From Candidatus Latescibacterota bacterium (GTDB lineage Bacteria > Latescibacterota > UBA2968 > UBA8231), in the NCBI GenBank assembly GCA_965242865.1, contig CBDETK010000013.1:2304001-2368000 (forward strand): a DNA stretch of 64,000 nt. The letters run 5' to 3'. Both the position numbers and the translations under genes were made by a program. Positions 9,575 through 26,058 of this stretch are shown here, piece by piece (the first letter of the stretch is position 1; every line of letters begins with the position of its first letter). The notes beneath the pieces are model-generated. The model searched no databases. It saw nothing but the letters and a program-made list of their open reading frames with translations, and was not told where the DNA came from.

Positions 9575-12500
9575 ATGTCCATGCGGCTATTCCTCCTCTT
9601 CTCGCTTTTGTCCGCGCCCTCTTTGGGGTTGGCCGCCGAGTTTGCCTGCGCGGCGTTGAAGGCGGCGGCGCAGCCGGTTGCCCAGACGCCGGAGCAGCTG
9701 AGCGCGTTGGTCATCTTCGCGCAGTTTGCCGACGAGAAGGCCAGCGACTCAGCCCCCGCATGGGCAAACGACCTGTTCGACGACGACCTACCCGGCAGCT
9801 TTGCCCATTTCTACCGCGAGATGTCGGCCGGCCAGCTCCACGTGGGAGGCCAAGTGTTGCCGCGACGCTATCGCTCTCGGGCGGCCGCCGAGGCCTATTT
9901 GGCCGAGGCCGCCGGGGCCTTGGGCCAGTTTGGCCGCTTCAATCTGGAAATTCTCGCGGCCGCCGACGCGGACATTGACTTGGGGCTCTTTGACAACGAT
10001 GGCCCCGACGGAGTGCCCAACTCCGGCGACGACGACGGGTACGTCGATATCGTCTTTATCAACCTGCACACCGCGCCCCGCGACTTTTTTCTCGGCGTGG
10101 CCACGGGCATCGCCAGTCTGGGGCTAGACGCCGATTACATCAGCGGCGACGCAGCGGCCGGCGGCGGCTTTGTGCGGGTGCGGAGTCGCTTCGCAGGTTT
10201 TGGCGGGACCACGCAGCGGGGCCACACCTTCAGCATCACGGCCTCGTCGATGTGCCACGAGTTCGCGCACGTGTTGGGCTTGCCCGATCTCTTCGATCAG
10301 ACCGCATTGACTGTGGCCGAGTTGGACCCGGAGGACGATTCGGCCGGCATTGGCAAGTGGGGGATCATGGGCCGGGGGACGCTCGGTTGGAATGCGGGCG
10401 ATGGCCCCAACGCATTTTCAGCTTGGTCGCTGGCGACCCTCGGTTGGGTGGAGGTGGTGGAAGTGCAAGGGAGCGTCGAGGGGCTGGCAATCGGGGAGAT
10501 CTTCAGCGACCGGAAGGCGTACAAAATTCCCCTGACCCAAGACGAGTATTTCCTGCTGGAGCACCGGCGGGCCGACGGCTCGTACTACAACCGCAATATC
10601 CCGCAAGACGGCCTGCTCATTTGGCACATAGACGAGCGGGCCGACAACGACGAGGAACGCCACAAACGGGTCGATTTAGTCTGCGCCGATGGGCTTTTTG
10701 CCGACCGGGGGTTTCCCAACGGCACCCCCGATGTAGTGGAAGGCCGCGACAATCTCGACTTTTGGGCGCGAGACTCCGCGTACTCTGCGGCGCACAACGG
10801 CAATGAAGGCGACGCGACCGACCCTTTTGACGGCGTGCGCTTCCGCCGCTTTGCTTGGGACACAAATCCAGCCCTCAGCGGGTACACGGGGTTTGCGCGG
10901 AATGTGCCGTTGGGCGTGGCCCTAGACAGCATCTGCCCGCACGGCACCGCGATGGTCGTCGACGTGGTCCGGTCGCCCCGCCCCGGCCACCTCGTCGGCG
11001 CTGCAACGTGGACGGGCCGAGTGGATTTAGACGGAGACGTGGTCGTGACGCCGGGCGCGACCCTGACCATTGACGCCGGGGCGGAGATCCGCTTTGCCCG
11101 CGGCGATGCACACGGCACGGGGTTTGATCCAGACCGCAGCGAGCTGATCGTCTATGGCGATCTCACCATCGGGCAGGGGGCTTCTTTTGCGTCGAGTGCA
11201 TCGCGCACCGGCCCGTTGGATTGGTCGGGCATTTACCTGCTCAACGGCCAAGCGGTCGATCCCTCGGCGCTGGCGGTCGAGCACGCCCATCGCGGGGTGG
11301 TTGATTTCCGCCTCCCGCCGGGGCGGACTCAGTGGTGGGGCGAGCGGGCCGTGCATGCGGATTTGCTGGTGCCGGCCGGGTCCGAACTGCACATTGGCCC
11401 GAGCACCGTGTCTTTTGCCCGCTTTGATCTCAGCCGGCGCGGCGCGTCCCCGGACTTCGCCGAGCTGATCGTGGAAGGCGCGTTGACGATTGAAGGGGGG
11501 GCCGGACAGCGGGCGCAGCTAACGACCGATCCCGGGCCAGACAACGACGGCTTGTGGTACGGCATTCGCGTACGGCCGGGGGCCCGAGTCAAAGTGCAGC
11601 ACGCCGAGCTAACGCGCACGGCTTTTGCCTTTGCCGGCGAGATTGACGAGGCGACGACCCTGCGCATCGCGGACTCCGCAGTGCGCGAAAGCGGCGGCAA
11701 TGGCCTGCGGCTGACGCTCAATGGCCGTGCCCAAGTAGATCGGAGCGAGTTTACCACCATTGCCGGCCCGGCCGTGCTCGTGGCCGGCCGCGGCCACCTC
11801 GCGTTGCGCAACACCACCATTGAGGGCAACGGCCAAGAGGGCATTCTGCTCAACAGCGCGTCCTTAGAGGCCATCCGCGTCGCCGTCATCGACAACGGGC
11901 GCCTCAACCCGGACGACCCCCGGGCTGGGGTGCGGGCCTTGGGCGGGCGCGGCCAACGCCTTGAGCTGTGGAAGTCGCAAATTGAGCAAAACACCGGGCA
12001 CGGCCTGGATTTGACGGCGTGGCTGGGGGAGGTGGAATTGCACGACAGCCGCCTCGTCGGCAACCAAGGCGATGGGTTGCGGGCCGAGGGCGCGGCGCGT
12101 TTGGCCTTGGCGCAGGTGCTCGTTGAGCGCAACTTGCGCGCCGGGGCCGAAATCGCCGGGTCGCTGGTGGAGATATGGAACTCGACGTTCCGGGCGCATA
12201 TTGACGCGGGCCTGCGCTTGGGGCCGGGGACGCACGGATTGATTGAGCAGGGCGCGTTTGTCGGGGGCCGAGGTTTGGAGCTAACCGGCGTGGAGTCGCT
12301 GGAGATTCGCGCCAGCGAGTTTGTCCGCGGGACGCCCGCGCTTCAATCCGTAGATGCTGCGCCGCATATCGTCGGCAACCGCTTTGCGGACAACCCCGTC
12401 GCCATCCGGGTCGAAGGCCCCCGGGTGCCAACGGCGATCCGCGACAACACCTTTGCCAACAACGCCACGGCCATTGAGAACCGGAGTGCCGACGCGCTAA

Positions 12501-12889
12501 ACGCCCAAGGCAACCACTGGAGCGCGGCCGACAGCGCGGCCATTGCCGCCCAGATTGAGGGCGCGGTCGCGTGGACGGGCGAGGGGGGGGCCAAGGCGGC
12601 GGTCCTGCCCGCCGACTTTGCGCTGCATCCGGCCTATCCCAACCCCTTCAACGCCGAGGTCGCGCTGTCGTTTGACCTGCCCCAAGCCGCGTCGGTCGCG
12701 CTGGTGCTCTACGATGCGTTGGGCCGGCCCGTGCGCCAGCTCGTGGATGGGCCGCTGGCGGCGGGCCGCTACCGATTCGGCTGGGACGGCCGCGACCAAC
12801 GCGGGACAGCCGTGGCTTCGGGGATTTACCTTTATCGCTTGGTGGCGGATTCGTTTGTCGCGGTGGGCCGCTTGGCCTTGGTGCGCTGA
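9575..12889 (+). CDS. M6-family (immune inhibitor A-like) metalloprotease with beta-helix repeats and FlgD/T9SS-like C-terminal domain
   Basis: Signal peptide; [12 protein letters not shown] zinc motif; [16 protein letters not shown]; EGNGQEG-type beta-helix repeats; YPNPFN...WDGRD...ASGIY. Start 9575 or 9581 (ORF open from 9518). Confidence 0.88.
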
Positions 12890-13173
12890 TACGTTTGCCA
12901 AGCGGGCACGTGAGCCGTCAGCAAGGCTTTGAAGAGCTTGCCGTGGTTGGGTACGCGCAGGTGCAGCAACTCGTGGACAATGACGAAGTCTTGGAAGCCT
13001 AAGTCCTGATCGGCGAGGTCCGCGGCGAGGGTGACGACGCCAGCGGTCGAACACGAGCCCCACTTGCGCGTCATGCACTGCACACGCACCTGCCGGGGCT
13101 GGACGTTCAGCCGCCGCGCCCAAGATGCGACGCGCTCGCGCATTACTTGGCGTCGTTGGTCAGGCGTCCGCAT
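12832..13173 (-). CDS. YgjP/DUF45-like (M48-like) metallopeptidase-domain protein associated with type I RM
   Basis: KWGSCS and [13 protein letters not shown] motifs; overlaps the hsdR stop. Confidence 0.88.
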
Positions 13174-16096
13174 CGGTGCTTACTCCCAAAATGCCGAGGA
13201 TGCGCTCTACGACGCGGGTCCGCTCGTCCTTTTGCAGGCGCAGTAGCGGAATATAGAGGGCCGTGCGCAGCCGCCGTTGCTCATCGGCGTTGACGGGCGC
13301 GTTGGGGAAGCGGTCGAGCAGCGTTTCCGCTCGTCGTGCCAACTCCAAGGTGTCGATGCCAGCGATGTCCAGCTTGGCGTCGTCCTTGAGTGCCCAATGG
13401 ACGGCGAATGCTCGCGGCGCTAGCCCGCTAGCTCGCTCGGCCCGGATGGCTGCATCCTTTTCCGCGGCGAGGTTCGCTAACCAGTCCATGGCTTCCTGCG
13501 CGGTTGTCGTGCGATTTTCCAGTTCCTTCAGGATGCTTTCGGCGCGTTGCTTTAAGGGCCGCAGCACGGCCTCTTTGTCTGGGTTGCTCTCGATTTCCTG
13601 CCGGAAGCCGCGCACGAGATTGAACACTTTGGCCGCGGCCAAGCCCGGCTCGCTTTGCAGCGTTTTAAGGGTGGATACGTCAAACGGCACGGTCTTGGTC
13701 AGCCGGCCGAGCCCTTCTTGAGTCGCATTCTCTTGTACCAGAAGCCGCGTTTTATTAGCCAAGTCTGCCGTGTAGTTGGTGCCGCGGGTATAGGCGTTGC
13801 GGACGGCCGCGTAGAGTCGCGCCAGCCGCCTGAAGGTGTCGATGCGGTCGCGCAATGCTGGCGAAGGCGACAAGATCTCCCACAGGGCCTCGATCTCCTT
13901 GTAGGCTGCAAAGAACGCCTTGCGCGACTCGAGTGCTAGAAAACGCCCATAGACGAGCTGCTCCAGTTGTTCATCCGCGCCACCGCTTTCCCCATCGGCG
14001 AGGTAAGTAGCTGCCGCTCGCCCGAGCTTGTCAAGCAAATCGCTCAGCAGGAGATCGAGGTCCTCCAAGGCACCGCTGACATCGGATGCGTCGAACTGCA
14101 ACGCCTTTTTTAATTCGCGCAGGACGCCGACAAAATCGACGACGAGGCCGATCCGTTTTTGGCGGCCGCAAGGGCGGTTCACGCGCGCGATGGCTTGGAG
14201 GAGCACGTGGTCGCGCATGGGCTTGTCGAGATACAAGCAGTAGAGGAGCGGCGCGTCGTAGCCTGTGAGCAGTTTGTCGGTGACGATGAGGATCTGGGGA
14301 TTTGCATCCGCTTTCTTGAACATCAGGCGGGTATCGGCCTCGCGGTCTGGCGAAAGCTGGTACTGCGCAACGAGCGGGCGGTTGACGCTGTCGGCGGCGT
14401 TCTCGGTGTAGACCGGCGTAGTCCATTCGGGAGGCAGCAACTCGTCGAGTGCCTGCTTGTACTGGGCACAGGCTTCGCGGTTCACGCCGACGAGGAACGC
14501 CTTGTAATGGAGCGGTGCCACGTTGTCGCGGAAATGCTGGGCGACGAACGCGGCAACTTTTTTGATGCGGTCGGCGGCGGTGAGGAAGGTGCGCAGGCCG
14601 ATGGCTCGATCGAGGACCTTGTTGAGCTCATCCACATCGGCGACTCCCTCTGTCTCGGCGAGGGCGAAGAACTCTTGGTCGAGCCGCTCTGCCGGCACCA
14701 TCATCTCGCTGGGGGCCATAGTGTGGCAGATCGGCAGCGTTGTTTCGTCCGCAATCGACTCGGCGATGGAGTACTTGTCGAGGTAGCCCAACTCGTCACC
14801 GGCCCCGAATATCTTGAAGGTGCCTTCTCCGTACGCAGTTTGGTCAATGGGGGTGCCGGTGAAGCCGATGATCGTTGCATTGGGCACGGCCGCCATTAGA
14901 TAGGTGCCCAATTCCTTGGCGACCGAGCGGTGCGCCTCGTCGATGAACACGTACACATTGTTGCGCGTATTGGCCTGCTGCTCTAGCCCCTCAAACTTGT
15001 GGATCATGGACAAGATCAGGCCGCGCTTGTCGGTTTTGAGCATATCCCGCAACTCGGCCTTGGAGTTGGCACGCCATACCGCGATGTCCTGCTGCTGCAT
15101 CTCCCCGAGCAGCCGCTCGACCCAGCCCTTGAGTTGCCCTTCGAGTTCCGTCCGGTCCACGACCACTAGGACCGTCGGCGTCTGGAATTCATCCTTGCGT
15201 TCCAAAATCAGCCGTGCGGCCGTGAGCAGAGTGAAGGTCTTGCCGGAGCCTTGGGTGTGCCATATAAGTCCGCGCTGTTTTGCCGGCTCGGCACAGCGCT
15301 CGACGATGCGGTCCACAGCCCGGCGTTGGTGCTGGCGCAGCACGGACTTTTGCGTCTCGCCGTCCTCGACGTAAAACAGAATCCAGTCGCGCAGGGTGCG
15401 CAGGAAATCGGTCGGCTCAAAGAACGATTGGACGGCGAAGCGGTAGCTTTCCTGTGGCTGTTCCTTCCACCGCGCCATGGACCGGCGCACTACGTTCCAA
15501 GTGACGCCATACCAATAGTCGAGGAGGTGTGTAACGTTGAAGAGCTGCGCCGTTCCCATCAGTTCCGGCGTCTCCTGCTCGTAGCGTCGCAACTGGGTGA
15601 CGCCCCGCTCAATGGCGTCGGCGTCCTTTGGGTTCTTATGCTCGACAATGGCGACCGGCACGCCGTTGACCACAAACATCACGTCCGCCCGATTGCCCTT
15701 GCGCGCCGGTGGCTTGAGCTTCCATTCCCAAGTGACGTGGAAGGTGTTGTTGCTCGGTGCATCAAAATCGACGAGTTGGACTGGTCTGGATCGATTTTCG
15801 GCTTCGTCGTACCACGGCCGTTCCCCGCGCAGCCAAGCGAGCATTTCGCGGTTGCCCTCAATCGTCGGCGCGATCGCTTCGAGTCGTTCGACGACGGCGC
15901 GGATGGAATCGTCTGTCATCCAAGGGTTGAACCGCCCGAGTGCGCCTTCAAGCTCATCGCGGAATAGCAGCCCGGCCTCGCCGCCGCGTTTGTGGAGGGC
16001 GTCTTGTGGTGCCAGTGGCTTCCAGCCGATCTCGGCCGCGTGGCGGACCATGGGGAACTGGACGGTGGTGGCTTCGGTGATGTTGAAGGGGGTCAC
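13160..16096 (-). CDS. hsdR: Type I restriction endonuclease subunit R
   Basis: Nuclease motif RADV...VEHK; Walker A TQGSGKT; DEAH; FTGTP; LLTGYDAP; [11 protein letters not shown] start at 16096 has a GGAG RBS (ORF open to 16117). Confidence 0.95.
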
Positions 16097-16168
16097 AAAC
16101 GGCTCTCCAGTTGCCAAGCTCCTCGATTAGCTACATTTTTCGCTAACTTCATTCTCAAGGAATTGGCG

Positions 16169-16402
16169 ATGGTAACAGTGAATGTCCATGAGGCGAAGAC
16201 CAACCTGTCGCGCTTGCTTGCCAAAGTTGAGGCCGGGGAGGAGGTCGTCATTGTCCGCAGCGGTACGCCGGTGGCCCAGCTCGTGCGCGTCCAAAAGCAG
16301 GGCAAGCGGCAATTCGGCTCCATGAAGGGCCAGATAAAACTCGACGACCGCTTCTTTGACCCGCTGCCAGAAGAGGAATTGGCCGCTTGGGAGGGCAATT
16401 GA
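16169..16402 (+). CDS. Phd/YefM-family antitoxin
   Basis: MVTVNVHEAKTNLSRLLAKVEAGEEVVI...PVAQL; AAGGA RBS. Confidence 0.92.
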   Translation: MVTVNVHEAKTNLSRLLAKVEAGEEVVIVRSGTPVAQLVRVQKQGKRQFGSMKGQIKLDDRFFDPLPEEELAAWEGN

Positions 16403-16562
16403 GCGTTGCGCCTTAGAGCACGCGGTGCGCGCTGGATCCTTGCCGGGTCCGCACCGAGACCCTTTCGACCGAATGCTCATCGCCCAAGCATTGTCCGGCA
16501 ATTTGGTCCTCGTTTCCATTGAATCGCTCTTCGATAGGTATGGTGTTCGCCGCCTTTGGTGA
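16399..16562 (+). pseudogene. vapC: VapC (PIN) toxin remnant, N-terminal part deleted
   Basis: Only the C-terminal HRDPFDRMLIAQA...YGVRRLW remains; the TTG start overlapping the antitoxin stop is out of frame and the LLLDTH N-terminus is absent. Confidence 0.85.
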
Positions 16563-16678
16563 TCTTGGCCAGATCGGATCACTGTACACTTTTGGATAGG
16601 CTAGCCTGACGAGAATGAGACATAATAGCATCCCTATAAGACCCCCTTAAAACTCTCTTTAAAGTCCTGACTTGGCTG

Positions 16679-17899
16679 TCATAGCTTTTCAAATATGACG
16701 ATACTCTCTCGGGCTGCTGTGCGCCCGTACTTTCCCATCTGCTGTGCACTATTTCCACGCCAACGCACTGCTCGTATTTCCTTGCAGGTGAGACCAGCCT
16801 GTTCCCCGATTTCTGCCGTAAATTCGTCAACAAGAATAGCCGTGCCATCGTATTGTGTATTCCCTACGACGAACCCAGCCTTCGCACCTTTGCGACAAAC
16901 ACGGGCAACTTCGCAAAGACACAGATACATATCTAGAAAATATCCGTCCAACATGCGCTGCATACGCTTGTCACTTAGACTGCGGATACTACTATCCAAA
17001 GCCTCCGGGGGCTTATATTCTTTAGCCAACGGTCGACTCGGACGAGCTTCCGGGTGGGAATGGAACGTCTGATATCTAAGTGCTCGATTTGCTTCCCAGT
17101 TATGGAAGGCGAACATCAATTCAACGCCAAAGATGCGTGTATAGTCGTGACGATTCGGATACGGTGGAGAAGTAATCACGGCTGAGTACACTGCATCAGG
17201 TGTCGGCATGGCACGCGCATCCGCTATACGAGCTTCCCAATATCTATCGCTATCGCCTTCGGACTCTGTGACACAAACGTCCGACAACATCATTTCAATC
17301 TGCTTCTGAAAAAAAATCGTAACACTATCGGCACTAGCACCTTGGTTCAACCACCTCAACCAACCTCCATTTGCGACTGCATAGCTAAAACGCGGTATGA
17401 TAGAAAGCAGTGCTAATCGAAAGAAGTCCCGTTCCGAAGACGAACAATCAATGTTCTCAATGCCCACCGCGACTGCATTTAGTGCCTCAAGCCGTCCCTC
17501 CGGGAGTGCCTTGTGAACCAGTTCTGGATATACACGGTCCATGGGCGGCGTGCTATCGTGAATCAATGTACGTTCGAGTATTTGCCATGCTGCTTCCAAC
17601 CGTTGTCTGGAGAAAGTAGCGGTCTTGGTATTGGATGCGAGAACAGCAAGAGGGGAGAGATCAAAGCCGTTACCCGGAACACCCATTTCTTTAGCGGCCA
17701 ATAGCGTTGTACCTGCACCTACGAAGGGGTCAAGGATCTTGTCTTGGTCGTTAAGGTCCCATTCATCTATCAATGCGTGGACGAGATCGTCAGCAAAGCT
17801 GTGAGGAAATAGATACCAACGGTGGACTGCCTTTTCTCTAACACCCCTCGGTGTTACCCAGTGTTTCCATGCACTCCATTCAGTAACTTGCCACTTCAT
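16679..17899 (-). CDS. DNA amino-methyltransferase (alpha-type motif order, SPPY; probably m4C)
   Basis: Motif I ILDPFVGAGTT near the N-terminus; motif IV ITSPPY; FVVGN; RESIVIF end. Confidence 0.9.
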   Translation of the reverse strand: MKWQVTEWSAWKHWVTPRGVREKAVHRWYLFPHSFADDLVHALIDEWDLNDQDKILDPFVGAGTTLLAAKEMGVPGNGFDLSPLAVLASNTKTATFSRQRLEAAWQILERTLIHDSTPPMDRVYPELVHKALPEGRLEALNAVAVGIENIDCSSSERDFFRLALLSIIPRFSYAVANGGWLRWLNQGASADSVTIFFQKQIEMMLSDVCVTESEGDSDRYWEARIADARAMPTPDAVYSAVITSPPYPNRHDYTRIFGVELMFAFHNWEANRALRYQTFHSHPEARPSRPLAKEYKPPEALDSSIRSLSDKRMQRMLDGYFLDMYLCLCEVARVCRKGAKAGFVVGNTQYDGTAILVDEFTAEIGEQAGLTCKEIRAVRWRGNSAQQMGKYGRTAARESIVIFEKL

Positions 17900-17914
17900 G
17901 ATGAACTATCAGCT

Positions 17915-18679
17915 CTAGGACACATGCAATTGCGGCTTAATCGAACCTCTGTCAGTGACCGTGTGAGCACTCGGCAACTCAACATCATCGGCATTTCCAA
18001 GTATAATCCGTCCGACGATCTCTCGGAGTTGCTGCTTAATTCCTTCATAGTGAGGTTCACCACGGATATGGTTTATGGTATTCTTAAAGTATTCGTCCGA
18101 AGTCAAAATGTAATCCGCCTGAACTACTAATGCATTCGCACAAATAATACTATCCATGGCATCCATATAAACCAGCCCGTTGATATCCTTTGCCAACTCT
18201 AGTACATCGCTCGCTTGGTCGCTTCGGCTCGTCTTGACAGCGATACCAAGCTTTCCTAACACGGAGGTTAGCCCGTCAATTCTATCCTTGATAGCCGCCA
18301 AGTCGGTGGGGCCGACTCGATCACGAATCTCTTTTTCCCTAAAGCGCGACCAAGTTCTATCTGACACTCCTTCTTTAGCCGCACTCAGAATTGCTTTTCC
18401 TTTTGCTCTTCCAGTGAGTAATTCAAGCTCTGAAATGGGTGCATATTGGACTTGTACATCCTGCTTCAAAAGGAAATCGATAGTTTCTAGACCCTTTTTA
18501 AGACTTTTTTGTAGATTGGCTTCAGAAAGGTTGTTTACCTTCGCTATCGCTGCCTCCTTTGTTTTGAGGTCTTGAGGATATAGATCATCCTTCTTGGCGT
18601 ATTCTAGGTAAATTTCGATGTAATGTAGTGTATTTGTGTCTAGAAACGCTACTTTCCGAAAGAATTGCGTCTTTTTCAT
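17915..18679 (-). CDS. PIN-domain-like protein
   Basis: AFLDTNTL, SELE, MDSII and ILTSD supply the four acidic PIN positions; ATGA overlap with the ATPase. Confidence 0.7.
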   Translation of the reverse strand: MKKTQFFRKVAFLDTNTLHYIEIYLEYAKKDDLYPQDLKTKEAAIAKVNNLSEANLQKSLKKGLETIDFLLKQDVQVQYAPISELELLTGRAKGKAILSAAKEGVSDRTWSRFREKEIRDRVGPTDLAAIKDRIDGLTSVLGKLGIAVKTSRSDQASDVLELAKDINGLVYMDAMDSIICANALVVQADYILTSDEYFKNTINHIRGEPHYEGIKQQLREIVGRIILGNADDVELPSAHTVTDRGSIKPQLHVS

Positions 18680-19860
18680 AGCTTTGTATTCTCACTGATA
18701 GTCGAGTTGGGATAAAGTTCCTCTTCGATTTTGTGAAGATAATTCTCGGTAAATGGTAGCTGCACGTCAGAATCCGCTTTTGCAATCGCTCGGAAACATG
18801 TCTTTACGAGCCGTCTAGGATTCGAGTACGTGTTGGGACGGAAGACAATATCATCAGGAAACGGGAAAAGGTCTCCCATTGATTCGTCCTGTTCTCCTGA
18901 CCTAGCAGCAGCTATCCGTGACCTCATTAAGGCTAACGCTTCCTCACTCGCTAGAGACTCGATATCTAATATTTGGTCAGAAATGCGCTCAATTAACGAG
19001 GGCTCAAGCTCCTTGGTCGTCTCATAAGCATCGGGGGTCATCGACAAGACGATCCAGAAGTCAACCTGCTCGCTTTGAGCGAGGTTAATCAAACGTTTCA
19101 GTGTCGCCAAGTAATCGTGTGCCGCCCGTTTAGTAAGCCGCTTCTGAAGACCTATTTCCTCGAATTCGTCTATAAGAAACGCAATGGCTTTAGCACTCGT
19201 CCCTTGTGAGATCGTTTTCAGTATTGCGCGAAAGTAAGGTGCTTCCTCGCCTTCCGGGACCATGCTGCCCGTCTGTCGGGGTATGAAATCCCGATATTCA
19301 AAATATGGTTTCTTTACGATCTCAGTAACGATTCTGGTGAGACAGTTTGCGATTTGTTCGTCGGTCGTGACATCCGCATTTATAATGGCCTCTTGGAGGT
19401 GGCTTGTCATATCCTGTTGTCGCCTCTGACGGAACGAACGAAACAAGTACTCCTCATAACCTTCTTGAAAAAGGTTTCCCTGATATGAATTAGACACATG
19501 TGAGCTAGCAAGCTCCCAGATGAATTTGGCAAAATCCTTACGGCCGACAGTGCGCAACAATGTATTAGCAAGATCATAAAATTGCACTCCTGGGTTATCA
19601 AAATAGAACGACTTGATTTGGCGGTTTGGAAAGATCTCGCTATGAAGCCATTGCAGGAGGCAGGTCTTTCCGGTACCGTACTCGCCGACGATGACGATGG
19701 CCTTTACTCCTTGGCCCATCTGATGGACATCGAGAAGTCCCATCGTATCTTCGCCTAGTTTATTCGGAGGAGCCAGCGTACCCAAGAGAGGTGCGCCTGT
19801 CGCAGAAGGCTCGAAAGGATTGGAATCAAGCCGGAGTTTTTGCAGGATGTTGGGTATCAT
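18676..19860 (-). CDS. P-loop (AAA-type) ATPase of unknown family
   Basis: Walker A GEYGTGKT; Walker B FLIDEFEE; N-terminal LxLxxNPF; NPRRL sensor-like motif. Confidence 0.85.
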   Translation of the reverse strand: MIPNILQKLRLDSNPFEPSATGAPLLGTLAPPNKLGEDTMGLLDVHQMGQGVKAIVIVGEYGTGKTCLLQWLHSEIFPNRQIKSFYFDNPGVQFYDLANTLLRTVGRKDFAKFIWELASSHVSNSYQGNLFQEGYEEYLFRSFRQRRQQDMTSHLQEAIINADVTTDEQIANCLTRIVTEIVKKPYFEYRDFIPRQTGSMVPEGEEAPYFRAILKTISQGTSAKAIAFLIDEFEEIGLQKRLTKRAAHDYLATLKRLINLAQSEQVDFWIVLSMTPDAYETTKELEPSLIERISDQILDIESLASEEALALMRSRIAAARSGEQDESMGDLFPFPDDIVFRPNTYSNPRRLVKTCFRAIAKADSDVQLPFTENYLHKIEEELYPNSTISENTKL

Positions 19861-20905
19861 AATCTGTGAACTCCATAGGTTTGAGAGTTATGTCTCTGTG
19901 TATGCGAATATGGGAAATATAGGGACCATTTGAAGCCTTATAATATCTTTTCAGCTCTAGATTTTCCCTTAGCGGAGATGTCGTCGTCAGCGTCGCGAGG
20001 GCACGAGAAGTGGGAATCAGGAAGATGTGATGGGGCCACTCGTGAATTAGCCAGTCGATCGCACTATAGAGCACACGGATCGGTTGTCTTTGTTCTTCGC
20101 AGCAACATGCGATGAGATCAAAAACAGAGAATGACGTCCATTCACCGGGCGTACGTAGTGAAAGAATGAAGCGTATAGTCTGAAGTACAGCGGTATCGAT
20201 TCCTTTCTCGGATAAGTTAGTCTGCAACACGGGAAACATGATCGTACTACCGCCAGATCGTTGACAGTATTCATCAATGAGCCCTAACTCATCACGCGCC
20301 CAGTAGCGTACACCATATAAAATCGCAGCCACGCTTGCGTGGGACGTAAGCCACGCTGTACGTCCCGTTATGCTATTTTGAAAAATGACCTCTCTCGTGT
20401 GAGAGGAACGGGGTCGGAACCACTTAACGGGAACACCGTTTTGCCGGAAACTGGAAACTGAATCGAAACTTGCGTCCGAGGACATAAAAAGATCAAAAAA
20501 AAGTGATCTGCATTGTTCGTTTTTCAAAACTAGTGCTGCAAAAGGGGCTTTCGCGGCATCACATAGCACCTGATCTCCGTTGGCTGGGATCGGCTGACGT
20601 AGCAGTTTGCAGACAATAGGATCATCATAGTTGACACGCAATATCCGTCCATCTCTTTGGAGTACGCCTAAGTGAATCAAGGTATTCCGATAGTGGTAAA
20701 GAGTGGTAGGTGCAGGAGGTGAACTACGCCGATTAATCGGGATGTTATTCTCCTGAACCAACTTATTGATCTCACTAGCCATTAGCCCGTTCGGAAAGTC
20801 TGCTACGGCTTTCAAGATACGATGTAGTCCAGCAAACGAGATGGTATGCATCCAGTATTCGCTCTGTCTCACGGGATATGGATGTTTATTGACCATTGTT
20901 TTCAT
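19826..20905 (-). CDS. Hypothetical protein, probable multi-winged-helix DNA-binding protein
   Basis: 359-aa ORF overlapping both hsdS and the ATPase; GLMASEI...TLYHYRNTLIHLGVLQRDG and YWARDELGLID resemble wHTH recognition helices. Confidence 0.7.
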   Translation of the reverse strand: MKTMVNKHPYPVRQSEYWMHTISFAGLHRILKAVADFPNGLMASEINKLVQENNIPINRRSSPPAPTTLYHYRNTLIHLGVLQRDGRILRVNYDDPIVCKLLRQPIPANGDQVLCDAAKAPFAALVLKNEQCRSLFFDLFMSSDASFDSVSSFRQNGVPVKWFRPRSSHTREVIFQNSITGRTAWLTSHASVAAILYGVRYWARDELGLIDEYCQRSGGSTIMFPVLQTNLSEKGIDTAVLQTIRFILSLRTPGEWTSFSVFDLIACCCEEQRQPIRVLYSAIDWLIHEWPHHIFLIPTSRALATLTTTSPLRENLELKRYYKASNGPYISHIRIHRDITLKPMEFTDYDTQHPAKTPA

Positions 20906-22175
20906 TTAGCTCTCGCTTTAGAGACGAATCGTAAACCAACGATAGGTCGAGAACATCAACCCGCATCTCCCACGTCATCAGCTTGTACAGCAGCGTCTTG
21001 AACAAATCGTCGAGCACCGCTCGTTTTCTTCGGTGTAAGTCAATTTTGCGGTCAATAGCGGCGAGAATGGCGACGATTTCGCATTGTTCATTCAAGGACG
21101 GCACCGGAACTAACTGTTCCTTGACAATCCGATCCGTCACTGCCGGGTAGCTAGCGCCGGTCTCAATCATAGCGAGTTGTTGAACAAACTGCTCCCGTTG
21201 GACGACATAGCGGATGAAGTCTTCAACGGCCCTCTTAGGCTCCCGACGCAGGACACAGAACGCTGTAGAACAGACTTGATTATTGAGTTGTTCGGGAACG
21301 ACAGCAGTACGCAACAAAGTTGGCCGGACCGTAGCGAAAATCACATCACCCTTCAAGATGCGTTTCCGGGCTCGTCCGGGTGCTTTTCTGAGTTTGAAAC
21401 GGGACGTTGACTCGATCTGTAAGGACTCTCGGGATACCGAAGAGACATCTACATACTCAATTACTCTCTCGCCTTCACGCCGAAGGTCAACTGTTTCTGT
21501 TTTTTTGCAGAGCGTTCCGAGCGGTCTCAAATTCCAACTCTCCGGCACTGAGCCAATCTCGGTTTCCCTCTGCGCTTCGCCCCTGAGTCCACGACTGAAG
21601 AGCGTCTGCATCGCGGCGCGTTTCAAATCCCGCGCAAGTTCGACGCTCTGAGCATGGGTCTTGATCGCTTTCCGAATCCGCGAAAGGGCGGCGACTATCG
21701 CTAGCTGCTCGTCGATCGTTGGCTGCGGGACCTCAAGCCCTGCCAATCGACTACGCGACAGGTTTGGAATCGTGGTCTTGTTGCCCGCGCCTTCGAATAT
21801 GCCAAGCTGTGTAAAGGCGGATTGCAGGAAGTACACGTAAAAACGCGGCTCGACCTCCTCGACAATGGGCCGCAGCCGATGTAAGTGATTCTGAAACGAC
21901 ATGGTTTCGACTGCGCCGTTCCAGATTGCGGCCCGCCCGATCTCGCCGCCCTCGCACACAAGCAGGTCGCCCCGGCACAACAGCTTGGCTCGTAGCTCGC
22001 GGTCTGGAATCGCCATCTCATCTACAGACGACAAGTCAATTTCATCCCAGAGGACATTCGATGTCCGAAGGAATGGAGTCTTGTCAGGACCGTTGCGAGC
22101 GGCGGCGGACATGGTTTTTCCCGCGCCAATTTCGAATAGCTCCCCGAGAGGACGCCATGTCCACGCTCCATTCAT
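20886..22175 (-). CDS. hsdS: Type I RM specificity subunit S
   Basis: Two TRDs separated by conserved regions (PTIDEQLAIV; LKRAAMQTLFSRGLRGE; PSLNEQCEIV...LFKTLLYKLMT). Confidence 0.95.
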   Translation of the reverse strand: MNGAWTWRPLGELFEIGAGKTMSAAARNGPDKTPFLRTSNVLWDEIDLSSVDEMAIPDRELRAKLLCRGDLLVCEGGEIGRAAIWNGAVETMSFQNHLHRLRPIVEEVEPRFYVYFLQSAFTQLGIFEGAGNKTTIPNLSRSRLAGLEVPQPTIDEQLAIVAALSRIRKAIKTHAQSVELARDLKRAAMQTLFSRGLRGEAQRETEIGSVPESWNLRPLGTLCKKTETVDLRREGERVIEYVDVSSVSRESLQIESTSRFKLRKAPGRARKRILKGDVIFATVRPTLLRTAVVPEQLNNQVCSTAFCVLRREPKRAVEDFIRYVVQREQFVQQLAMIETGASYPAVTDRIVKEQLVPVPSLNEQCEIVAILAAIDRKIDLHRRKRAVLDDLFKTLLYKLMTWEMRVDVLDLSLVYDSSLKRELNENNGQ

Positions 22176-22552
22176 TGCAGGCGCACCAACCCCTTGAGCC
22201 GCACGGCTGGCAACCTCTTCAACCGCTGATTCAGTGGGTCCACTTCTATACCGACGGATTCCAACGCCGTCACGCCCAGCAATGGCTCGGCGTCGGCCTC
22301 GCCGAATAGGATCGTCCCGCCAACGATCTCGCCCATAAACTCAATGTCAGCAGTGGTCACGTCCAGAACAAGGTCGCTCCCATCGGCCAGTTGGTATATC
22401 CTGCGGCCCTTCGGCTCCAGGCCGATGGCCTCTAGGTAAGGCCGGGGCACCAGGGAATCGGTGGCCCCTGTATCAACCAGAAACAGACCCTCCCAAAACC
22501 GGCCCGGCTGTGCGGGGTTGGTAATCCTAGCCGTTACATGCGTCGCTCCCAT
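22172..22552 (-). CDS. Clan AA (retropepsin-like, AF_0612-type) aspartic protease
   Basis: FLVDTGAT catalytic motif; LADG; PLLGVTALE; GGAGG RBS. Confidence 0.9.
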   Translation of the reverse strand: MGATHVTARITNPAQPGRFWEGLFLVDTGATDSLVPRPYLEAIGLEPKGRRIYQLADGSDLVLDVTTADIEFMGEIVGGTILFGEADAEPLLGVTALESVGIEVDPLNQRLKRLPAVRLKGLVRLQ

Positions 22553-22587
22553 GCTTTCCTACCTCCTTCGATCCTGAATATCCGCGT

Positions 22588-24408
22588 CTATTGCAATCGT
22601 GCCAACATATCTGATAGGTGTGCATCCACCTCTCGGGCCTCTTCATCGAGGCACTGCATCTCGGTAATGATCTCCGAGATCGGCCGTTGAACTACCTCGT
22701 CAGCCTGCCCTACCCACCGGCTCGGACTCAAGTTGTAGTCCGCCTGCTCCGCCTGCTCTCGCGTAATCACCGCAATCTCGCCCTCCACCGGCTCACCCTT
22801 CACAAATGCCGTTGCAATCAGCCGAATGTCCTCTTGTGGAATGAAGTTCTTGGGCCGTCCCTTGCGAACTCGCCGACTGGCGTTGAGCAGCACGATCTTG
22901 CCCTGCCGGGCCTCTGGCTTGCGCTTCGACAACACCACGACCACGCCAGCGGCACTGGTGTTGTAGAACAGGTTGTCGGGCAACAGGATCACGCCGTCGA
23001 TCAAGTCGCGGTCCACGAACCATTTGCGGATGTTGCGTTCCCGGTCCTCGTGTTTGGCGCCTGCGCCGCGCGTCACCGCGCCGGTGTCGAGCACGACCGC
23101 GGCCCGCCCGCGCTCGTTCAGGCAGGCGAGCGTGTACTGAAGCCAAGCCCAATCGCCCTTGCCGGTGGTGACGCCGCCTTGGGGGCGGAAGCGATCAAAG
23201 GGGTCGTTGGCGAAGAGCGCCGGGCTGAATGGCTGATTCCACATGGGATTGGCGACCACGATGTCGTGGGTGGAAATCTGGCCAGTCGCGGTCTTGAACT
23301 TGGGATTGATCATAGTGTCGCCGCGCTCAATTGCCATCTCCATGTCGTGGATGATCCCGTTCATGCAGGCGACGGCGTAGCTCTCGGCTTGCAGTTCTTG
23401 GCCGTAGAGCTTGAGCGGTACGCGGCTGGTGGGGTCGAGCTCGCGGGCGACGAGTTGGAGCTTGACGAGCAAACCTGCCGAGCCGCAGGCGTAGTCGTGG
23501 CAATCCTCGCCGGGCCTCGGGCGCATGAGGTGCGCCATGAGGAAGCCGACTTCAGTGGGCGTGAAGAACTCGCCGGCACTTTGGCCCGAGCCTTCGGCGA
23601 ACTTGCGCAGCAGATACTCGTAGGCGCGGCCGAGGAAGTCGGGCTGCACATCGGCGAGGCCGAGCCGGTAGCGCGGGTCGGAAAAAGTCTCGATGACTTG
23701 GGTGAGCTTGGCCGGATTGATGTCGCGCTCGCCATTGCGCTCGGAGGCAAAATCGACAAAATCGATGACCCCCGAAAGCGAGGGATTCTGCCGCACGACC
23801 CCCCGCACGGCCCGTGTCAAATGCTCGCCGACATCTCGCGGCCGCATGCTGAGCGACCACTCGTAACCTTCGCGACCGCTGATGACGCCCCAACGAGCTT
23901 CCGGCGGCAGGTAGAATCGCAGCAGGGCGTGGTCGCTCTCGGCGATTTCCAGCGCAGTCGCCCGATCCCCGAACTCCTCGGCCAAGCGTTCAATCTCGTC
24001 GTCGAACACATCGGATAATCGCTTGAGGAATAGAAGCGGCAGCAGGTAGTCCTTGAATTTTGCCGCATCCTGCTCGCCGCGAATGGAGCAGGCCGCGTCC
24101 CACAGCATCTGTTCCATGGGCTTGGTCGAAGGCACGGCCGCACGGCCTTTGCCTGTCCGTCGCCGCGTCGCCCGCACGGCGGCTTCGGTTGCAGCCAACT
24201 CCATTGTGTCGATGCCCGATTCGGTAGCGAGTGCAGCGATGGCTTCTTGCGCGGCCTTCTGTGGCTTGATTGCGCCGCCTTCCCAGCGGTTGATGCTAGC
24301 GAAAGAGACGCCAAGCCGCTCGGCAAGCTGCTCTTGGGTGAGGTCGAGGCGGACGCGGATGGCGCGTAATGCAGCCGGAATATCGGATAATTCTGCTATA
24401 TTTGACAT
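22588..24408 (-). CDS. hsdM: Type I RM methyltransferase subunit M with N-terminal XRE HTH
   Basis: [24 protein letters not shown]; [10 protein letters not shown]; GEFFTP; DYACGSAG; motif IV variant NPMW. Confidence 0.93.
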
Positions 24409-24444
24409 AGATGTCAATATAACAGAATACCGATTGCACGTCAA
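24402..24444 (-). promoter_or_regulatory. Sigma70 promoter for hsdM (likely leaderless) with overlapping palindromic operator
   Basis: Minus strand TTGACG(24444-39)-17 nt-TATATT(24421-16), ATG 7 nt later; palindrome TTGACAT-AG-ATGTCAA at 24402-24417. Confidence 0.7.
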
Positions 24445-24462
24445 TAGTGCTGCATTGTTTTT

Positions 24463-24497
24463 GTAGTATATTCGGATGTACATTCCGAATATACTAC
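24463..24497. repeat. Perfect 14-bp inverted repeat at the RM island boundary
   Basis: GTAGTATATTCGGA-tgtacat-TCCGAATATACTAC. Confidence 0.85.
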
Positions 24498-24627
24498 GAT
24501 CTAGGATGTGGATTCAGCGGCCTCACCTGTTCAGCCAGATTGGAGTACCCGCTCGCGCCGAATATAACGGCCCTGCCGCTAAAGAAAGTTGGCGGTCTCG
24601 CGCTGTCGGCGACGAGGAGTTGACTGT

Positions 24628-26058
24628 TTAGATCGCCAACTGCTTGCGCAACAATTCTTGCACGAGCTGGGGATTGGCCTTGCCCCGCGTCGCCCGCATC
24701 ACTTGACCCATCAGAAATTGCACGGTTTTGTGGTGGCCGCCCTTGATTTTGGCGACCGCGTCGGGATGCGCGGCGATCACGTCGGCTACCGCTTGGTCGA
24801 GTGCCTCGCTGTCGGAGATTTGCCCAAGGCCGCGTGCGGCGACGATCTCGGCCGGCGAGCCGCCCTGCTCCCACAATTGGCCAAAGACTTCGCGGGCCGC
24901 GTTTTGGTTGATCGCGCCCTTGTTGACTAAAGCGAGCAACTCGACGAGCGCGGCGGGCGGGACCGCAACGGCCTCAATGGACCGGCCCTCGGCGTTGAGG
25001 CGGCGAAAAATTTCCCCGGTGATCCAGTGGCCCACCTGTTTGGGGTCTGCGCCTTGTATCTGGGCGGCCTCTTCAAAATACGCGGCCACGGCTCGGTCTT
25101 CGACCAAAGCGGCGGTCTCCTGTGGAGTGAGGCCGTAGGCCACAACAAAGCGCGCGGCTTTGGCGGCAGGTAGCTCGGGCAAGCGGACGCGGACTTTGGC
25201 GATCCACTCGTCGTCGAGCTCGGCGACGAGCAGGTCGGGCTCGGGGAAGTAGCGGTAGTCGTCCGAGGTTTCTTTGCTGCGCTGCGGACGAGTGATCTGG
25301 GCGCGTTCGTCCCAACCCATCGTCTCTTGCTCGACGTGGCCGCCAGCTTCGACGATGCGCTGCTGGCGCTCGGCTTCATAGGCGATGGCGCTGCGCACGG
25401 CGCGGAAGGAATTGAGGTTTTTAACCTCGACCTTGGTGCCCAAGGCGCGGGTGCCGGCCGGCCGGATCGAGATGTTGGCCTCGCAGCGCATGGCCCCTTT
25501 CTCCATGTCGCCCGAGGACGCGCCTAGGTAGCGGACCATCTGGCGGATCTGGGTCAAGTACGCATAGCTCTCGTCGGCCGAGCGGAGCGCGGAGTCGGTG
25601 ACGATTTCCATCAGGGGGACGCCGGCGCGGTTGTAGTCTATCAAGCTGGCGCGGTCGGCGTGCTGGAGCTTGCCGGTGTCCTCCTCGAGATGGACGCGGA
25701 CGACGCCGATTGGCTTGGGGCCGTTCTCGCCGCTGATTGCGATCCAGCCGCTCTCGCACAGGGGTTGCTCGTATTGCGAGATTTGGTAGCCCTTGGGCAA
25801 GTCGGGATAGACGTAGTTTTTGCGCGCAAAGACGCTGCGGGGTTTGATCTGGCAGTTGAGTGCCATGCCGGTCATAACCGTCAGCTCGAGGGCGCGGCCG
25901 TTGATGGCGGGCAAGGCCCCGGGTTGGCCGGTACACACCGGGCAGATGTGGGCGTTGGCCGCCACCTGAAAGTGATCGGCCGGGCAGGCGCAAAACATCT
26001 TGGAAGCGGTTTGCAACTCGACGTGGACTTCCATGCCGATGACGGTTTCGTAGCGCAA
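24628..26058 (-). CDS. gatB: Asp-tRNA(Asn)/Glu-tRNA(Gln) amidotransferase subunit B
   Basis: YETVIGMEVHVEL, RKNYVYPDLPKGYQISQY, HLEEDTGK, DYRYFPEPDL, LMGQVMRATRGKANP; TTG start with AAGGAG RBS. Confidence 0.97.
   Translation of the reverse strand: MRYETVIGMEVHVELQTASKMFCACPADHFQVAANAHICPVCTGQPGALPAINGRALELTVMTGMALNCQIKPRSVFARKNYVYPDLPKGYQISQYEQPLCESGWIAISGENGPKPIGVVRVHLEEDTGKLQHADRASLIDYNRAGVPLMEIVTDSALRSADESYAYLTQIRQMVRYLGASSGDMEKGAMRCEANISIRPAGTRALGTKVEVKNLNSFRAVRSAIAYEAERQQRIVEAGGHVEQETMGWDERAQITRPQRSKETSDDYRYFPEPDLLVAELDDEWIAKVRVRLPELPAAKAARFVVAYGLTPQETAALVEDRAVAAYFEEAAQIQGADPKQVGHWITGEIFRRLNAEGRSIEAVAVPPAALVELLALVNKGAINQNAAREVFGQLWEQGGSPAEIVAARGLGQISDSEALDQAVADVIAAHPDAVAKIKGGHHKTVQFLMGQVMRATRGKANPQLVQELLRKQLAI

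Follow-up and report, generated by a model that had tools for sequence, protein, structure and literature searches.

A conserved four-gene cassette within a type I restriction operon of a Latescibacterota bacterium is a candidate defence system of restriction-like logic

Four small genes sit inside a type I restriction operon of a Candidatus Latescibacterota bacterium, and their position raises the question of whether they serve that operon or form a system of their own. They lie in a window of 64,000 nt, which is the whole stretch of DNA that was analysed (GenBank assembly GCA_965242865.1, contig CBDETK010000013.1, positions 2,304,001 to 2,368,000). We found that these genes, called the cassette here (16679-20905, 4.2 kb, between hsdS and hsdR), are conserved as a set of four and are an unnamed candidate for a defence system with a restriction-like logic, which had been mis-framed as a type I accessory. 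With moderate confidence, we read the cassette as an autonomous, horizontally mobile, methylation-linked, split ATP-dependent system resembling restriction-modification (RM) and independent of the type I enzyme.

The four co-oriented genes are on the minus strand and encode a 359-aa multi-winged-helix protein, called the reader here (gene 1, 19826-20905), a 394-aa P-loop ATPase that is AAA_22 / BrxC-BrxD-like and ORC/STAND-related (gene 2, 18676-19860), a 254-aa predicted PIN-fold nuclease with large helical insertions (gene 3, 17915-18679), and a 406-aa DNA amino-methyltransferase (gene 4, 16679-17899). An earlier, sequence-only reading of the window had described four AT-richer, co-oriented genes at this place, and all of its coordinates and quoted motifs were verified; the GC content is 0.471 for the cassette genes and 0.631 and 0.618 for the 10-kb flanks. 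Its account of the gene junctions also stood for three of the four: the reader and ATPase genes overlap by 35 nt, the ATPase and PIN genes overlap by 4 nt, and the PIN and methylase genes are separated by 15 nt. The fourth, a 20-nt overlap of hsdS with the reader gene, is less certain and is conditional on the longest-ORF (open reading frame) start of the reader. Met19 of the reader is invariant in 28 homologues and is used as the start by many relatives, and residues 1-16 are disordered in the AlphaFold model (confidence score, pLDDT, <50). Hence, the reader may start at 20851, in which case the overlap would give way to a spacer of 34 nt behind the hsdS stop codon. The cassette is probably co-transcribed with the surrounding type I operon. 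Promoter and terminator scans were uninformative (15 terminator-like sites found vs 13 expected), no Rfam family was found within 12000-26000 of the window, there are no terminal repeats of note around the cassette, and the 561-bp spacer adjoining hsdR is single-copy in the genome.

The four genes travel as a unit in numerous uncultured bacteria. Scanning one genome per species with the reader alignment, and calling genes by tblastn with the window proteins, yielded 47 loci, and all four genes are present in the same order and orientation in 33 of them. These 33 include three loci that are interrupted, by an IS256-type transposase (L015), an ISL3 transposase (L029) and an unidentified 3.6-kb insert (L032). 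Four loci are at contig edges (L004, L026, L044, L047) and 10 are partial or decayed; the reader is alone or fragmented in L010, L017, L023, L027, L028, L034, L040, L041 and L042, and in the tenth, L043, a reader-ATPase fusion and the PIN gene occur with no methylase gene beside them. Clustering the ORFs of the 47 loci and the window gave four families present in 40, 36, 34 and 33 loci, with the next family in at most eight. The arrangement is far beyond chance, given that all four genes keep their order in 33 of 47 loci. The median gap between the PIN and methylase genes is 3 nt by longest-ORF calls, and the identities of the four proteins to those of the window covary across 31 loci (Spearman 0.79-0.92, a crude measure as kin are non-independent). 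Mean identity to the window is 45% for the PIN protein, 58% for the reader, 66% for the ATPase and 68% for the methylase.

The same linkage was found in a set of 168 genomes of the phylum. The full reader is present in six (G000, which is the window's genome, and G102, G125, G074, G080 and G089), the PIN protein is in the same six adjacent to the reader, and methylases of at least 78% identity are again in these six, about 3 kb from the reader gene and never alone; the next methylase relatives are at most 31% identical. A profile of the ATPase (E ≤ 1e-8) found the six cassettes and three relics only (G072, G075, G090), and no wider ATPase family with other partners appeared in the phylum at this threshold. 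The relics, which lie downstream of hsdR (L083 10210-12529 in G090, L084 9850-11300 in G072, and also in G075), consist of a frameshifted C-terminal reader stub, an intact ATPase ORF of 392-397 aa (78-81% identity) and a DDE transposase, in this order and with no PIN or methylase gene. Within the genus, the distribution is patchy, with the cassette in two of 31 genomes. Hence, the proposal that the four genes are a conserved module passed the co-occurrence test, both in the 47 loci and in the phylum.

The cassette is also mobile. Its GC content is below that of both flanks in 32 of 35 loci, and copies 50-88% identical occur in records titled Nitrospirota, Acidobacteriota, Latescibacterota, Gammaproteobacteria, Planctomycetota and others. 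The neighbours are systems of DUF499, OLD-type ATPase, DUF7680 and DUF1156-methylase genes, type I systems and STAND NTPases. Taken together, the defence-gene neighbours, low GC, patchy distribution, cross-phylum identity and frequent decay point to a role in defence. At several Vicinamibacterales loci (e.g. L045 15021-20073 and L028 6933-9836), the cassette adjoins a DUF499 ATPase, an OLD-type ABC ATPase, DUF7680 and a DUF1156 methylase; these neighbours make up a system that is BREX-related or MANTIS-like and has an added OLD-type component.

Judged by its AlphaFold model (pLDDT 81), the reader is a winged-helix DNA-binding protein of several winged-helix modules. The window protein matched no Pfam, NCBIfam or PADLOC family, none of 28 family members had a Pfam match, and none of the 398 homologues at E ≤ 0.001 is functionally named (a few are labelled 'hypothetical protein') or has a Pfam domain. 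In the model, residues 20-117 form a canonical winged helix (Z 8-9 against many winged-helix proteins), and the sole multi-domain structural match is the FokI recognition domain (2fok_A, Z 9.3, root-mean-square deviation (rmsd) 3.3, 168 residues across 15-228). The FokI alignment covers 15-228, and a third domain is suggested by the DSSP pattern H238-E336 alone. The top Foldseek row was SspB (6juf), a weak match (E 0.028, probability 0.72); SspB was absent among the 50 best structural-alignment rows in a second look, and the reader profile had no match to PDB sequences at E ≤ 10. FokI, DndG and SspB have a triple winged-helix module in common, and SspB acts with SspC, an ATPase of the Orc/Cdc6 clade (PMC10853773). 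Hence, the two structural leads, FokI and SspB, indicate one known architecture. Membership of the reader in SspB/DUF4007 (PF13182) was rejected, as there was no profile match and hhalign against 15 same-phylum DUF4007 proteins gave a probability of 0.3%. DUF4007 (SspB-type) genes are present in 46 of the 168 phylum genomes, with none in the window's own genome, and phosphorothioation systems of the Ssp kind or like type 4 BREX may be widespread in the host phylum.

For the ATPase, we found a Pfam AAA_22 match (2.5e-10) and an NCBIfam match to the Sll1717-family P-loop ATPases (1.2e-10) that is below the family cut-off. Across its family, AAA_22 was matched by 27 of 27 members and BrxC_BrxD by 22 of 27 (E ≤ 1e-3). 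PADLOC gave weak matches only (BrxD at 1e-3 on the P-loop, SspC weakly on the P-loop, and mad8 at 2e-5), comparison with the PDB by sequence returned P-loop noise only, and a language-model atlas placed the protein beside clusters in which 10-74% of members have BrxC_BrxD, which we take as a lead only. The catalytic motifs are intact: Walker A (G59-K65, GEYGTGKT), Walker B (D231-E235, FLIDEFEE) and an N-terminal NPFE motif are invariant in 27 ATPases. The reader and ATPase are fused in frame in three independent cases (in L012, which is 84% identical to the window, in L043 and in P0357, a protein of 712 aa), which is good evidence that the two proteins act jointly. A complex prediction of reader residues 17-343 plus the ATPase with the PIN protein as partner scored 0.25 vs a mark of 0.32 in a run without controls and weighs neither for nor against contact.

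The model of the 254-aa protein (pLDDT 92) has the three-layer alpha/beta/alpha core of the PIN fold. It aligned with all 134 of 134 target residues of 8wmm_G (Z 11.6, rmsd 2.6), and with more than 12 VapC toxin chains at Z 10-11, covering the entire target chains. The four conserved acidic residues at strand ends that typify PIN nucleases are in place; D14, E84, E86 and D195 are invariant in 28 sequences and D176 is conserved in at least 90% of these, and D14, E86 and D176 are at ≥95% in 34 locus ORFs. The Pfam PIN profile (PF01850 clan) did not match the window protein and matched eight of 28 members at E ≤ 1 (best 1.2e-4); none of the 105 homologues at E ≤ 0.001 is functionally named or has a Pfam domain. 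Two long helical insertions have no structural match. Sub-gathering Pfam matches to HhH-GPD (DNA glycosylase) in 10 of the 28 family members (including P0139, P0143, P0147 and P0158) span about residues 85-230 and fall on these insertions; we rejected them as evidence for a helix-hairpin-helix, since the alignments are gapped and the model has a continuous helix there, and they are probably spurious.

The fourth protein matches the PADLOC model MTase_II (PDLC03224, 1.8e-60) over its full length (residues 20-405). It is a type II-family DNA methyltransferase with motif I (DPFVGAGTT) followed about 180 residues later by motif IV (SPPY, in the context TSPPY), and both blocks, D57-L66 and S244-R255, are invariant in 26 sequences. 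Hence, the catalytic motifs are invariant in all three enzymes of the cassette, that is, in the ATPase, the PIN protein and the methylase. Remote plasmid-borne relatives that align over the full length carry DNA methyltransferase annotations. One of them, from a plasmid of Enterococcus faecalis, is 25% identical, has a near-identical motif IV block (VVTSPPYANRYDYTR) and adjoins an annotated type II endonuclease; another, on plasmid pBspH1 of an NEB strain, is beside a convergent unnamed gene and a small helix-turn-helix (HTH) regulator. The PADLOC model and the annotated relatives argue for DNA as the substrate, and SPPY suggests N4-cytosine methylation. The window's genome has further methylase paralogues of 485-487 aa that are 27-30% identical (C8:61224-62486 and C13:633120-634367), and paralogues of that kind occur in 61 of the 168 phylum genomes at E ≤ 1e-10.

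These predicted folds and families agree with the parts that the sequence-only reading had guessed, namely a winged-helix binder, an ATPase with Walker motifs that weakly resembles BrxC/D, a protein of the PIN fold and an amino-methyltransferase that looks active. Its view that the methylase has no recognisable cognate type II endonuclease was also borne out: no restriction endonuclease (REase) family in Pfam or PADLOC was found for the three partner proteins, whose folds include winged helix and PIN. For this reason, an ordinary type II RM system was rejected, as the cassette is without a single cognate endonuclease of a known restriction fold. PADLOC-DB 2.0.0 (2023) yielded no families for the reader and the PIN protein and weak ones for the ATPase, so there was no full match to a system catalogued in that release, as had been predicted.

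Restriction-modification logic is suggested by the methylase family being paired with an annotated type II endonuclease on the Enterococcus plasmid, and the composition of the cassette is that of an RM system with three proteins in the endonuclease's place. This composition is the source of the mechanism that we propose. In the order of events that we infer, the methylase would mark host DNA at a short motif, and the reader and the BrxC/D-like ATPase would form one complex that reads the same kind of site on unmarked DNA. The ATPase would be a nucleotide-driven switch or loader, with ATP binding or hydrolysis licensing the PIN-fold protein, the sole nuclease in the set. Once licensed by the complex, the PIN protein may cut invading DNA, to which we lean slightly, and it would do so from the slot that is usually held by a restriction endonuclease beside this methylase family; alternatively, it may cut RNA and abort the infection. 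If the nuclease is indeed a PIN-fold protein acting as the sole effector, the cassette would be the first restriction-type system of this kind, a 'FokI in pieces' in which a fast-evolving three-winged-helix reader in trans, clamped or switched by the small BrxC/D-like ATPase, would set the place or the time at which the PIN protein acts, with the self mark coming from the type II-family methylase, and this we put forward tentatively as a possibility rather than an expectation.

Several observations weigh against this proposal. The defence, methylation and restriction roles are deduced from the genes themselves. The nearest solved structures to the PIN protein are VapC RNase toxins, so its putative DNA-cutting role derives from its position in the cassette. 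The best PDB sequence matches of the methylase include tRNA m2G methyltransferases, with similarly weak scores. Only the first two modules of the reader match a known multi-winged-helix domain, and by sequence the reader has no detectable relation to SspB/DUF4007. The BrxC_BrxD match of the window's ATPase is below the cut-off (19.3 vs 22.2 bits in Pfam), and the apparent BrxC/D likeness is one of sequence. The three relics keep an intact ATPase ORF alone. Last, L043 has a reader-ATPase fusion and the PIN protein with no adjacent methylase and, if intact, it argues that three genes are viable without a linked methylase.

The strongest rival explanation is methylation-gated abortive infection, in which the same machine would use the PIN protein as a VapC-like RNase on tRNA, rRNA or mRNA to arrest growth; it differs from the RM-like reading in the effector step only, and we consider it unlikely. 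The top structural matches of the PIN protein are the whole VapC chains described above, PIN domains beside BREX-type systems are treated as backup endoRNase effectors (PMC12839542), and PIN ribonuclease defence systems lose defence in catalytic mutants (PMC13092281). However, the cassette has no other nuclease, which makes the PIN protein a primary effector rather than a backup; the partner of the methylase family in the Enterococcus relative is a DNA endonuclease; and some DNA nucleases, those of the FEN1/EXO1 type, also have PIN-like folds and rank low among the Foldseek matches of the PIN protein (probability 0.2-0.44).

A second rival has two separate entities next to each other, a type II methylase that is solitary or ordinary and an unrelated reader-ATPase-PIN module of an abortive-infection or toxin-antitoxin-like kind. 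Locus L043, with its reader-ATPase and PIN protein, would fit this, and the methylase, in which a large insert of its own separates motifs I and IV, resembles stand-alone type II methylases. Against this, the close methylase is confined to the same six of 168 genomes as its partners and is near the reader in each, it is in a fixed last position in 33 of 43 informative loci at a median of 3 nt from the PIN gene, and its divergence tracks that of the other three proteins. We consider this reading improbable.

We consider it equally improbable that the cassette is not immunity at all and instead is a selfish addiction, epigenetic or DNA-maintenance module of a mobile element, either a methylase with a loss-punishing nuclease or a complex for site-specific processing of DNA. 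A selfish element would also agree with the spread across phyla, the low GC and the frequent decay, and AAA_22 ATPases include transposition proteins (TniB is among the weak Pfam rows for other ATPases). However, ORF clustering found no transposase, integrase or replication gene conserved with the cassette, the reader is absent from 72,556 plasmid (PLSDB) and 50,697 phage (INPHARED) records, and the neighbours are defence genes; moreover, addiction and defence are compatible in RM-like systems.

The RM-like reading treats the cassette as autonomous, and its relation to the type I operon bears this out. In the window, the operon is on the minus strand and comprises hsdM (22588-24483, HTH-fused; Pfam, PADLOC, NCBIfam), a clan AA aspartic protease gene (22172-22552, 126 aa; TIGR03698, 1.5e-21), hsdS (20886-22175; Pfam, PADLOC, NCBIfam), the cassette, a small ORF without family (16127-16582, 151 aa) that is conserved next to hsdR, and hsdR (13160-16117; Pfam, PADLOC). 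Among the 33 complete cassettes, only five are in the hsdS-hsdR gap of this type I family (L001, L002, L008, L009, L012); the other 28 are outside it, most without type I genes within 10 kb. Conversely, roughly 35 phylum genomes have an hsdR orthologue of at least 70% identity, and an intact cassette is beside it in three.

Relatives with the same type I locus carry other cargo in the gap. By blastn of the window against the congeneric G129 (L071), which lacks the cassette, homology is lost after 16648 and returns at 20959, within the final 24 hsdS codons, so that the cassette-specific DNA is 16649..20958. In G129, the gap (L071 6185-7920) holds 1.7 kb with an MNT-type nucleotidyltransferase, a HicA toxin and an ORF of 219 aa, of unknown kind; in a second congener, G143 (L070 5700-13600), it is occupied by a STAND-like NTPase of 2038 aa together with a HepT RNase. 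A third congener, G130, no longer has hsdM and hsdS, and in L008 an HNH endonuclease gene is between hsdS and the cassette. Hence, the type I operon is a landing site and not a part of the machine, and the hsdS-hsdR gap serves as a slot where recombination exchanges defence and toxin-antitoxin cargo and into which the cassette was probably inserted by recombination via the conserved flanks. The remark of the sequence-only reading that this interval is a hotspot is supported by the unrelated cargo, while the weight that it placed on the type I embedding is not, given the cassettes outside the operon and the many relatives whose type I system has none.

The composite of type I system and cassette recurs (L001, L002, L008, L009, L012 and G102), and its proteins are 75-88% identical in records with the titles Nitrospira, Nitrospirales, Terriglobia and Latescibacterota. 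Hence, the whole block also moves between phyla. This recurrence, the probably co-transcribed position between hsdS and hsdR, and the encoding of PrrC within a type IC locus (PMC12707154) would suit a PrrC-like guard or accessory that senses HsdMSR inhibition and responds via the PIN protein, as had been offered earlier, but with 28 of 33 complete cassettes elsewhere, an intact cassette in so few of the genomes with the hsdR orthologue, unrelated cargo in congeners' gaps and a methylase of the cassette's own, this idea is already disfavoured and we give it very little credence.

Three features of the type I locus stand apart from the cassette. The 151-aa ORF is beside hsdR in the cassette-free G129 and G130 too, so it is part of the type I flank and not of the cassette; it also occurs near type I genes in L001, L002, L006, L008 and L009. 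The clan AA (retropepsin-like) protease gene between hsdM and hsdS is kept in L001, L002, L008, L012, G129, G143, G090 and G072, as an accessory of this type I family that is unusual and as yet unexplained. HsdM has an N-terminal XRE-type HTH (residues 35-97, 24190-24380 on the minus strand, HTH_3 1.6e-08), which suggests a built-in regulator.

The cassette does not have the defining features of the nearest described systems. MANTIS, or Gao_RL (BREX-related type 2), comprises MtsA, an AAA+ ATPase that belongs to the ORC/Cdc6 clade, together with MtsB, the methylase MtsC and the helicase-nuclease MtsD (10.64898/2026.09.23.753747). MANTIS resembles the proposed reading of the cassette in being a four-gene set for methylation-based self/non-self discrimination that combines an ORC/BrxC-related ATPase and an accessory with a methylase and a nuclease effector, and it sets a precedent for the loading or licensing of other components by an ATPase. 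In contrast, the cassette is without DUF499, DUF3780/DUF3870, DUF1156 and HKD-helicase domains (Pfam), its ATPase is 394 aa, its accessory is multi-winged-helix, its PIN effector is motorless, and its methylase, which has a large insert of its own, comes from a type II family. We therefore rejected the cassette as a MANTIS/DUF499 system, in which DUF499, DUF1156 and the helicase-nuclease would be expected within the cassette; in L045 and L028 such genes are separate neighbours.

The SspBC core, shared by SspABCD-SspE and type 4 BREX, pairs the triple winged-helix SspB/DUF4007 with SspC of the Orc/Cdc6 clade (PMC10853773, PMC12839542), and in these accounts it resembles the cassette in joining a multi-winged-helix reader and an ORC/BrxC-like ATPase to a DNA-modifying enzyme. 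The cassette differs in that it is without a DUF4007 sequence relation, PAPS reductase or cysteine desulfurase, its modification is predicted to be methylation rather than phosphorothioation, and it has a PIN effector. Accordingly, SspABCD was rejected, as the nine genes from hsdM to hsdR include no SspD (PAPS-reductase-like) or SspA (cysteine desulfurase) by Pfam. BREX was rejected, as there is no PglZ in these nine genes and the ATPase is of 394 aa with a BrxC_BrxD match below the cut-off. MADS (mad1-mad8) was rejected as well: mad8 is matched weakly by the ATPase, and the remaining mad matches, mad2 and mad5, are on hsdM and hsdS, both of which have much better scores with type I models (PADLOC).

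The type IIS enzymes of the FokI kind have a three-winged-helix recognition domain fused to a PD-(D/E)xK nuclease domain. The recognition domain matches the reader, and both systems have a cognate type II-family methylase; the cassette differs in that recognition and nuclease are separate proteins with the ATPase in between, and in that the nuclease is PIN-fold. Operons of an Orc/Cdc6 ATPase, a restriction-endonuclease-ASCH protein and a DndG-like triple-winged-helix protein are mentioned in PMC10853773, and they resemble the cassette in that, within mobile neighbourhoods, an ORC-type ATPase is coupled to a triple winged-helix protein and a nuclease; they have REase-ASCH in place of PIN, and the passage on them mentions no methylase. 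The PrrC and RloC anticodon nucleases resemble the cassette as accessory nuclease genes inside a type I operon (PMC12707154), but there is no homology, and the cassette is mostly outside type I loci and has its own methylase. Its inclusion in the class of PrrC-like type I guards was rejected, with five of 33 complete cassettes in the type I family and no PrrC-type model matched in PADLOC. We found no description of the four-gene set in the literature, the supplementary neighbourhood tables of PMC10853773 and PMC12839542, which may list such sets, not being covered; the cassette may overlap with the Orc/Cdc6 operons of PMC10853773.

Methylation-based immunity beyond classical RM (BREX, DISARM, MADS, MANTIS) is an active field, and to our knowledge each solved system of this kind gave a new way in which an ATPase couples self-marking to restriction. 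We know of no restriction-like system in which the PIN fold is the primary nuclease. At 4.2 kb and with four small proteins, the cassette is compact enough for easy cloning and dissection, and it has a clean genomic signature, with strict four-way linkage over many phyla and natural reader-ATPase fusions. The comparisons of empty sites document the hsdS-hsdR gap as a slot for defence and toxin-antitoxin cargo in an uncultured lineage. If a trans-acting, rapidly diversifying winged-helix reader does direct the nuclease, this family would be of interest both for its mechanism and for tool building.

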